Source of the DNA: Shigella phage SF1-1
Direction: 5' to 3' (one strand)
Sequence record: PQ571307
Length of the DNA: 64,000 nt
Shown here: positions 26,665 to 27,024 of the stretch, in pieces
Position numbering within the stretch: position 1 is the first letter of the stretch
Layout of the letters: the number at the start of each line of letters is the position of its first letter
The notes under the pieces: generated by a model
The model's input: only the letters and a program-made list of their open reading frames with translations
Database searches by the model: none
What the model was told of the DNA's origin: nothing
Position numbers and translations under genes: made by a program

Positions 26665-26865
26665 TCTTCCTCCTGTTCGGTATTATTCACCTGTGAGACA
26701 CAATGTAACACAAGTTTTGTGAGTTTGTCAAGGATCTAATTACATTCTACAGAAGAAGAGGGTTAATAACTATAGGAATAGTCTTACTATAGGTGCAATA
26801 CTAGTTAAGAGTTAGATTGATAGGTAAGACTTATCTTAAACAGATAATTGATAGGTGAGTCACCA

Positions 26866-26894
26866 TTGACTTTTTCAAAAAAGTATGGTACCCT
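26866..26894 (+). promoter_or_regulatory. promoter-like element with palindromic spacer (copy 1 of 2)
   Basis: TTGACT, spacer containing palindrome ACTTTTT-C-AAAAAAGT, then TACCCT; near-identical copy at 57304; oriented against the flanking minus-strand genes. Confidence 0.4.
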
Positions 26895-27024
26895 AAACAT
26901 ATGTTTACGAGCGATAGCGAGTAGTAGATTTCTATATAATAATGTTTCATGTTACTCACGATAGTGAGGTATGAAACGTAAGTGAAGGTAGATAAACTAT
27001 GATCATCTATCTACCATCTATTAA

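Follow-up and report, generated by a model that had tools for sequence, protein, structure and literature searches.

A promoter-like element with an invariant leader hairpin at three orthologous sites of Phapecoctavirus and related phages

Phapecoctavirus and related phages appear to carry a class of host-type sigma-70 promoters whose transcripts would open with a fixed hairpin tag. In the reading that we favour, to which we assign a rough probability of 0.45, i.e., somewhat short of even odds, this tag would make the 5′ end of the RNA more stable and dock a factor, and one of the promoters, designated copy A, would give rise to a small non-coding RNA. Phages of the phAPEC8 and phi92 types have been isolated widely and proposed for therapy, and their gene regulation is essentially unstudied; we found no transcriptome of these phages in the literature. 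The element may offer a tractable handle on this regulation, consisting of one promoter class and one invariant hairpin of 13–14 nt at three sites.

The element, its copies and their genomic positions

The stretch of DNA analysed, referred to below as the window, comprises 64,000 nucleotides of Shigella phage SF1-1 (PQ571307). The phage belongs to Phapecoctavirus (subfamily Stephanstirmvirinae) and around copy A is 99.6% identical to phage nieznany. The first-pass annotation of this DNA had described a 31-bp promoter-like element that occurs twice, each time followed by the same motif. The repetition is confirmed: both copies lie on the plus strand, copy A at 26866–26923 and copy B at 57303–57360, the latter starting one base before the 57304 originally given. 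The motif behind each promoter is an identical 16-mer, CGAGCGATAGCGAGTA, at 26908–26923 and 57345–57360. The 31-mers of the two copies differ by one substitution and by two compensating single-base indels, and because of these indels an ungapped search of the window with 3 mismatches allowed returned no match between them. The pattern TTGAC-N16-20-TACCCT was found 2 times in the window against 0.09 expected, the 16-mer 2 times against 0.15, and neither pattern nor fuzzy searches of the window revealed further copies. The features discussed below are as follows.

26702..26731, minus strand: divergent promoter-like site TTGACA-18-TACATT with TG, scoring 10/12 in the consensus scan; would serve the minus-strand gene 26449-26664
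26816..26859, plus strand: direct repeats ATTGATAGGT(A/G)AG, lying between copy A and the divergent minus-strand promoter; specific to copy A
26866..26894, plus strand: predicted promoter of copy A; -35 TTGACT at 26866-26871, 17-nt spacer at 26872-26888, extended -10 TGG-TACCCT at 26886-26894
26889-26894, plus strand: -10 hexamer TACCCT of copy A, followed by 13 nt up to CGAGCGATAGCGAGTA
26895..26906, plus strand: variable palindromic segment AAACATATGTTT of copy A, read from the sequence; covers the predicted start at ~26901
26905..26924, plus strand: leader hairpin TTA-(CGAGC GATA GCGAG)-TAG of copy A, with the box proper at 26908-26921; from covariation and folding
26944..26977, plus strand: second hairpin GTTTCAT...ATGAAAC with inner CTCAC-GATA-GTGAG; from folding
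26987..27015, plus strand: third hairpin GGTAGATA...TATCTACC, ending 9 nt short of the stop codon of the convergent gene 27025-27234
57303..57331, plus strand: predicted promoter of copy B; -35 TTGACT at 57303-57308, 17-nt spacer, extended -10 TGC-TACCCT with the hexamer at 57326-57331
57334-57343, plus strand: mini-hairpin CCCCGAAGGG ahead of the box of copy B, within the feature 57334..57360
57345-57358, plus strand: box CGAGCGATAGCGAG of copy B, followed by TA
57361..57475, plus strand: structured leader of copy B, 115 nt, from the box to the Shine-Dalgarno sequence AGGAG (57463-57467) of the 65-codon ORF 57476-57673

Comparison over more than 30 distinct homologues supports the interpretation of the element as a promoter, and its geometry and conservation point to the host-type sigma-70 class. 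The conserved parts are TTGAC(T), a variable spacer of 17–18 bp, TGnTACCCTA, 11–16 variable bp and the box CGAGCG-N1-2-AGCGAG. In both window copies the -35 hexamer TTGACT matches the consensus TTGACA at 5 of 6 positions; TTGAC is kept in most homologues and is weaker in some A copies (TTTACT or TTGATT). The spacer is 17 bp long in the window copies and 17 or 18 bp in all homologues read, its sequence being variable, and TGG, TGC or TGT directly precedes TACCCT in every copy. The -10 hexamer shares only 3 of 6 positions with TATAAT (the A at position 2 and the T at position 6 are kept), for which reason a consensus promoter scan of the window listed neither copy A nor copy B. The good -35 hexamer together with the TGn extension would offset the C-rich -10. 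All copies have a palindromic or hairpin-like segment of 11–16 bp separating the -10 from the box; its sequence is unrelated from one lineage to the next. The promoter activity, the start site and the RNA ends of the element are predictions throughout, the start of copy A at ~26901 being placed by the usual spacing of ~7 nt past the -10.

The genome of phage nieznany is divided into four blocks: plus-strand nucleotide-metabolism genes, ~75 small minus-strand genes of unknown function, plus-strand replication genes, and minus-strand tRNA, lysis and structural genes. The second of these is probably the early block. Copy A is situated inside it, ~3.3 kb from its 3′ end, and copy B lies ~1.4 kb inside the replication block, co-directional with its neighbours. 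The -35 hexamer of copy B overlaps the TGA stop codon of ORF 56950–57306, and the 65-codon ORF behind this copy corresponds to gp153 of phage nieznany. The genes located 3′ of copy B differ between genera, and the B copies of relatives possess a different hairpin with covarying inner pairs before the ribosome-binding site; in one relative (L017) a strong hairpin with a U-run is found between the box and the gene.

The early block of the window has several further peculiarities. Between 48900 and 50069 there are ~1.2 kb devoid of a long minus-strand ORF, corresponding to an unannotated gap in nieznany. The left part of this gap (48920–49520) is GC-rich, unlike the remainder of the phage; Fur-box-like sites GAGAATGATTATCATTTAC and GCGAATCATTATCATTTGC, judged against the Fur consensus, occur near 49527 and 49585, and two AT-rich direct repeats of 72 nt, 138 bp apart, are found at 49641–49850. 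The minus strand of 43100–48900 contains many early-type promoters (TTGACA-N17-TAAGAT-like), each directly followed by a GC-rich hairpin, e.g., GGGCGGGAAGTGGTTTCCCGCC; the corresponding repeat families (D1, D3, D4, D7, D8, D10, D17) resemble the promoter/stem-loop modules of T4-type phages.

A short-query BLAST detected the element in 136–139 phage records, in two places in nearly every record listed. The carriers are Phapecoctavirus, Justusliebigvirus including phi92, and relatives infecting Klebsiella, Citrobacter and Serratia. A third copy, B′, more divergent than the other two, came to light when whole genomes were read; it is located outside the window at ~270 on the minus strand of nieznany, at 47924 in phi92 and at 62.6 kb in Klebsiella phage phi1_175008, always at the divergent junction ahead of the prs, NAD-salvage and tRNA genes. 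In phi92, copy A occupies position 7972 between gp023 and gp024, and copy B lies at ~129.8 kb; copy A always adjoins a gp024-like gene. These shared syntenic positions indicate that A, B and B′ are three orthologous sites older than the split of the genera. The earlier description of the element as duplicated thus holds for the two copies in the window and fails as a label for the element itself, which has three orthologous copies per genome.

The region downstream of B′ contains GATC-containing repeats, an 88–93% AT stretch and a second promoter. In nieznany (NC_052659, ~1–440 and the record end; L001, L003) a unit of ~150 bp is present twice 3′ of B′, each unit with an 88%-AT stretch, a AGATCTAACA motif and a promoter-like site, and this arrangement looks like an origin or a promoter array. 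In phi92 (NC_023693, 1–343; L039) direct terminal repeats of 343 bp are annotated inside the small early-gene block; copy A of this phage lies 8 kb from the left end and points towards that end.

The leader hairpin and the predicted RNA of copy A

The invariant portion of the element is located 3′ of the -10 and was missed by the earlier annotation. The box CGAGCG-N1-2-AGCGAG is the top of a hairpin, with a stem formed by C-G, G·A, A·G, G-C and C-G and a loop G-N(1-2)-A. The loops observed are GAA, GCA, GATA, GAAA, GTAA and GGGA, with the stem constant. The box is flanked by three base pairs that covary, with A-U, C-G, U-A and G·U all represented. In a set of 15 homologous sequences the covariation score was 0.425 versus 0.161 in shuffles (0/500) and 92% of the cells pair; sliding the partner reduced the score to 0.16 or less. 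A test with 17 sequences agrees with this second, 15-sequence test, from which L029 was excluded. Both the ViennaRNA centroid fold and RNAalifold recover the box hairpin. In copy B of the window, one of two such sequences in the set, the flanks do not lengthen the stem.

Since the centre of the box varies in both sequence and length and the flanks covary, the conserved object is a single-stranded structure and not a duplex operator; the varying centre also speaks against a duplex protein-binding site. The frequent G·U pairs in the flanks further make it specific to the sense strand, i.e., to the RNA or to the non-template DNA strand. The hairpin probably forms in the RNA and not in the displaced DNA strand. 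A mixture of GNA triloops and GNNA tetraloops and the tandem G·A pairs of the Y-GA-R type are hallmarks of very stable single-stranded DNA mini-hairpins, and the box hairpin could work in the displaced strand instead; if it is read there, the ops principle would have a second example. With a start ~7 nt past the -10, the hairpin is predicted to begin 3–6 nt from the 5′ end of the RNA.

Copy A resides between the minus-strand ORFs 26449–26664 and 27025–27234 (gp083 and gp084 in nieznany), the former being the homologue of phi92 gp024. The direct repeats previously reported upstream of it do exist, at 26816–26828 and 26847–26859, and the alignment of all A copies shows a proximal ATAGG/ATCGG motif at a constant distance to the -35. 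Copy A opposes its neighbour genes in every lineage examined, so that the orientation against the local genes noticed in the initial description extends beyond this phage, and the non-coding or antisense product suggested there remains a plausible one. Behind copy A there is no conserved plus-strand ORF, which makes such a product plausible; the plus-strand ORF 26999–27193 was rejected as a coding gene, since it is not conserved and the overlapping minus-strand ORF is.

An intergenic space of ~70–125 nt is reserved for copy A in all lineages. The second hairpin of the window copy has homologues (UUUCAUG-N5-CAUGAAA) in other A copies and in the integrative elements described below, with UA-to-CG compensatory changes. 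The third hairpin may be where the copy A RNA ends, or may work as a two-way terminator; it is not followed by a U-run and is not called by the terminator scan, which detected no canonical terminator 3′ of copy A. Judging from these sequence features, copy A would make a small non-coding RNA of ~90–120 nt with three hairpins, directed against the early-gene block. Such an RNA would add a non-coding RNA gene to genomes that are annotated with proteins and tRNAs alone.

The element in integrative elements of enterobacteria

Small integrative elements of Citrobacter, Buttiauxella and Scandinavium (L023, L041, L042, L050, L052, L043, L068, L094, L099 and L100, some of them from metagenomes), detected by a scan of bacterial genomes and metagenomes, also carry the element, directly behind their integrase gene. 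This version is most similar to the B′ copy of the Klebsiella phage. The integrase is followed by the promoter-hairpin element and then by ~900 nt without coding sequence, in which repeated modules and a perfect consensus promoter occur; three small ORFs and a DUF5906 protein complete the layout. From the layout alone, the integrative elements may be satellite-like. Their presence hints at a possible helper–satellite link in a phage group without known satellites.

The RNA of the integrative elements, ~160 nt long, has several covarying hairpins. What it has in common with the phages is limited to the promoter, the box hairpin, the second hairpin and a few short motifs; full-length homology was rejected because a covariance model built from five integrative-element RNAs gave the phage sequences noise-level E values of ~0.4–1.7. 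No replication or structural proteins are common to the integrative elements and the phage, the sole protein likeness being a methyltransferase-like segment. The idea that the phage copied a host sequence was also discarded, as none of 5,426 complete E. coli genomes contains a match to the integrative-element version. Retention of the element in the integrative elements is selection in a second, independent genetic context.

Candidate mechanism and its alternatives

According to the mechanism that we favour, host sigma-70 polymerase would bind TTGACT, the spacer of 17–18 bp and TGnTACCCT, a step deduced from geometry and conservation, and would start ~7 bp downstream. The first ~25 nt of each transcript would fold into a hairpin composed of the invariant top and a base of three covarying pairs. 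At 3–6 nt from the 5′ end, this hairpin may protect the RNA from 5′-end-dependent decay, and most likely a single trans-acting factor would also dock on it and handle every tagged transcript in the same way. A single docking factor seems the most likely because the hairpin top does not differ between the three paralogous sites, between several phage genera or between phages and integrative elements, and docking is favoured because the sequence of the tag, beyond its structure, is invariant. Transcription from copy B would lead into the replication-gene block, and copy A would be an orphan that diverges from the predicted promoter of the gp024-like gene. No candidate binding protein was identified: a phmmer search of the phage detected no NusG or RfaH homologue, and no antiterminator or RNA-binding Pfam families were detected among 142 phage ORFs, a scan that small arginine-rich proteins could escape.

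The stabilising part of this mechanism has a parallel in the 5′-terminal stabiliser stem-loops of the ompA 5′ UTR type, reportedly described by Emory, Bouvet and Belasco in 1992, with which the present hairpin shares a location within a few nt of the (here predicted) 5′ end. In the ompA-type stabilisers, however, the structure suffices, whereas here 12 nt are invariant across genera and paralogues. The Rfam search of the window yielded no match at the gathering score and, in the surroundings of the two copies, no hits better than chance (E above 1); that of the integrative elements yielded no match, and neither tRNA nor tmRNA was found in the window. In the literature we found no description of this promoter-proximal leader element.

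The hairpin might alternatively be the loading site of a processive antitermination or elongation factor, which we regard as unlikely. Tagged polymerases would then traverse the long late block from B′ and the replication block from B, those starting at copy A would run antisense over the early block and shut it down, and the integrative elements would have copied the tag so that a helper phage switches them on. The model for such a tag is the ops element: ops12 (GGCGGTAGCGTG) forms a small hairpin in the non-template strand, with the pair C3:G8 and the loop G4–A7, that is required by RfaH, and the G5A change abolishes RfaH recruitment (PMC5995543). Similarly to our element, ops is short and promoter-proximal, lies in the leaders of long operons and has a purine-rich non-template strand with a C:G-closed mini-hairpin and a G..A loop; the box AGCGATAGCGAG and ops agree at 9 of 12 positions, and the C-G pair is invariant in the box. 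The positions of the copies also suit a loading site, B′ and B being near the heads of ~40 kb gene blocks and copy A facing ~25 kb of early genes, as do the strong hairpin and U-run ahead of the gene behind the B copy of L017 and the presence of the element in the integrative elements. Nevertheless, every box has A at the position of the ops G5 or lacks this position, the pause TG of ops positions 11–12 is replaced by AG, and most loops (GAA, GCA) are devoid of the T flipped out by RfaH, T6 being found in the GATA variants only. The hairpin is also longer than that of ops, having 8–9 pairs including the tandem G·A, and is placed at ~+5 to +25, right after the promoter. The missing G5 and TG pause, and usually the missing T6, mean that the box is not an ops element.

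The lambda-type nut sites offer another comparison: they too are small hairpins found soon after an early promoter in few copies per genome, and their GNRA-like loop may be comparable to the G-N(1-2)-A loops here. Unlike them, the phage element has invariant tandem G·A pairs and one copy that opposes the genes; no boxA (CGCUCUUA-like) was seen by eye in the leaders or beside the box, and its stem and loop differ from known boxB sequences. Searches for a protein that could act at a loading site detected none of the NusG, RfaH, Q or N-like kind, and the integrative elements carry a separate perfect-consensus promoter before their operon. A broader version of the same idea seems to us comparably doubtful. 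In it, the G·A hairpin would act as an ops-like tag in the nascent RNA or in the displaced DNA, a phage-induced factor would co-activate three units, namely the late/tRNA side, the replication block and the antisense RNA silencing the early block, and the satellite-like integrative elements would have copied the tag in order to sense their helper phage.

A role of the elements in replication, as origins or as primer promoters comparable to T4 oriF/oriG or ColE1, is likewise improbable in our estimation. An R-loop would form from the promoter, and the hairpin of the displaced strand, together with an AT-rich unwinding stretch, would aid its persistence and thereby prime DNA synthesis. T4 oriF and oriG consist of a promoter and an unwinding element, with a transcript that serves replication, and the lambda oop RNA is a short transcript running against an early operon. 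Our element has no sequence similarity to any of them, and both an antisense target and an origin role are only proposed for it. Stretches of 60 bp with 88–93% AT do occur ~100–250 bp 3′ of the B′ copies and of the copy A of the Klebsiella phage (the 99th percentile of the window is 75%), but the flanks of both window copies are only moderately AT-rich (73–75% AT). An origin would also agree with the ~150 bp repeats and GATC-containing AGATCTAACA motifs 3′ of B′, and with the repeated modules bearing TGTTACTCA-like motifs that follow the box in the long non-coding stretch of the integrative elements. In the window, however, TGTTACTCA is not enriched, and with 23 matches versus 22.4 expected it was rejected as an iteron. 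The hairpin chemistry suits single-stranded DNA, and an orphan, wrongly oriented copy A would need no gene; on the other hand, the G·U-type pairs and the mostly GNRA tetraloops suit RNA better, and the second hairpin covaries in RNA fashion. Furthermore, the integrative elements have no replication protein in common with the phage, and the window contains another candidate origin-like region at 48.9–50.1 kb.

A simpler explanation would reduce the element to a strong promoter whose initial transcribed sequence is conserved and which recombination has spread, in the manner of the promoter/stem-loop modules (PeSL) of T4-type phages that were reportedly described by Arbiol et al. in 2010. The box would then tune promoter escape without any partner, and the copy A transcript would be noise. 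The PeSL modules do resemble our element in coupling a sigma-70 promoter to a stem-loop repeated in the phage genome, the early block is full of promoter-plus-hairpin modules (families D1–D10), and the genes behind copy B vary between genera. Unlike the PeSL, which are numerous, variable and tied to gene shuffling, the present element occurs in three fixed syntenic copies, at orthologous positions across genera, with an invariant 12-nt core and a covarying stem base. Copy A, moreover, retains its antisense orientation, its reserved space of ~70–125 nt and the second conserved hairpin, and the element is retained in the integrative elements, so we consider this explanation quite improbable.

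The proposal of the first-pass annotation that the spacer palindrome ACTTTTT-C-AAAAAAGT is an operator, taken here as one through which a dimeric repressor would control the promoter, appears very improbable, since the T-run/A-run pattern, which survives in most A and B copies, changes there in its centre and arms and is absent from the unrelated spacers of B′ (TTTGTTTTTATATATGC, AACGCAAAAAAGTATGC, TTTGTGTTCGAAGTATGT) and of the integrative elements, where the rest of the element is retained, and the invariant sequence lies 3′ of the -10.

Pattern matches to the box were also obtained outside the phage group, for which ~four such matches are expected by chance. Those from IMG/VR (the L008–L037 family, L027 and L029) and from genomes (L044, L045, L047–L049, L051) have no promoter and were treated as unrelated. 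The IMG/VR sequences L008–L037 are AT-rich contigs unrelated to the phage, with TACCCTATCCCCCCCAACGAGCGAAGCGAGTGGG in inverted pairs and clusters of the GCGAAGC type. In Chloroflexota, Terriglobia and other genomes (L045, L047, L051, L055, L057, L058, L082, L096), CGAGCG(A/C)AGCGAG is embedded in long perfect inverted repeats, GTCATTCCGAGCGAAGCGAGGAATC and its complement; this inverted repeat is a widespread element unrelated to that of the phages. Finally, some records labelled as Campylobacter, Acinetobacter or Pseudomonas phages are ~98% identical to these coliphages, and a Proteobacteria MAG and a Lysobacteraceae draft (L040, L046) contain the Phapecoctavirus copy B region; mislabelling or contamination is likely in these cases.
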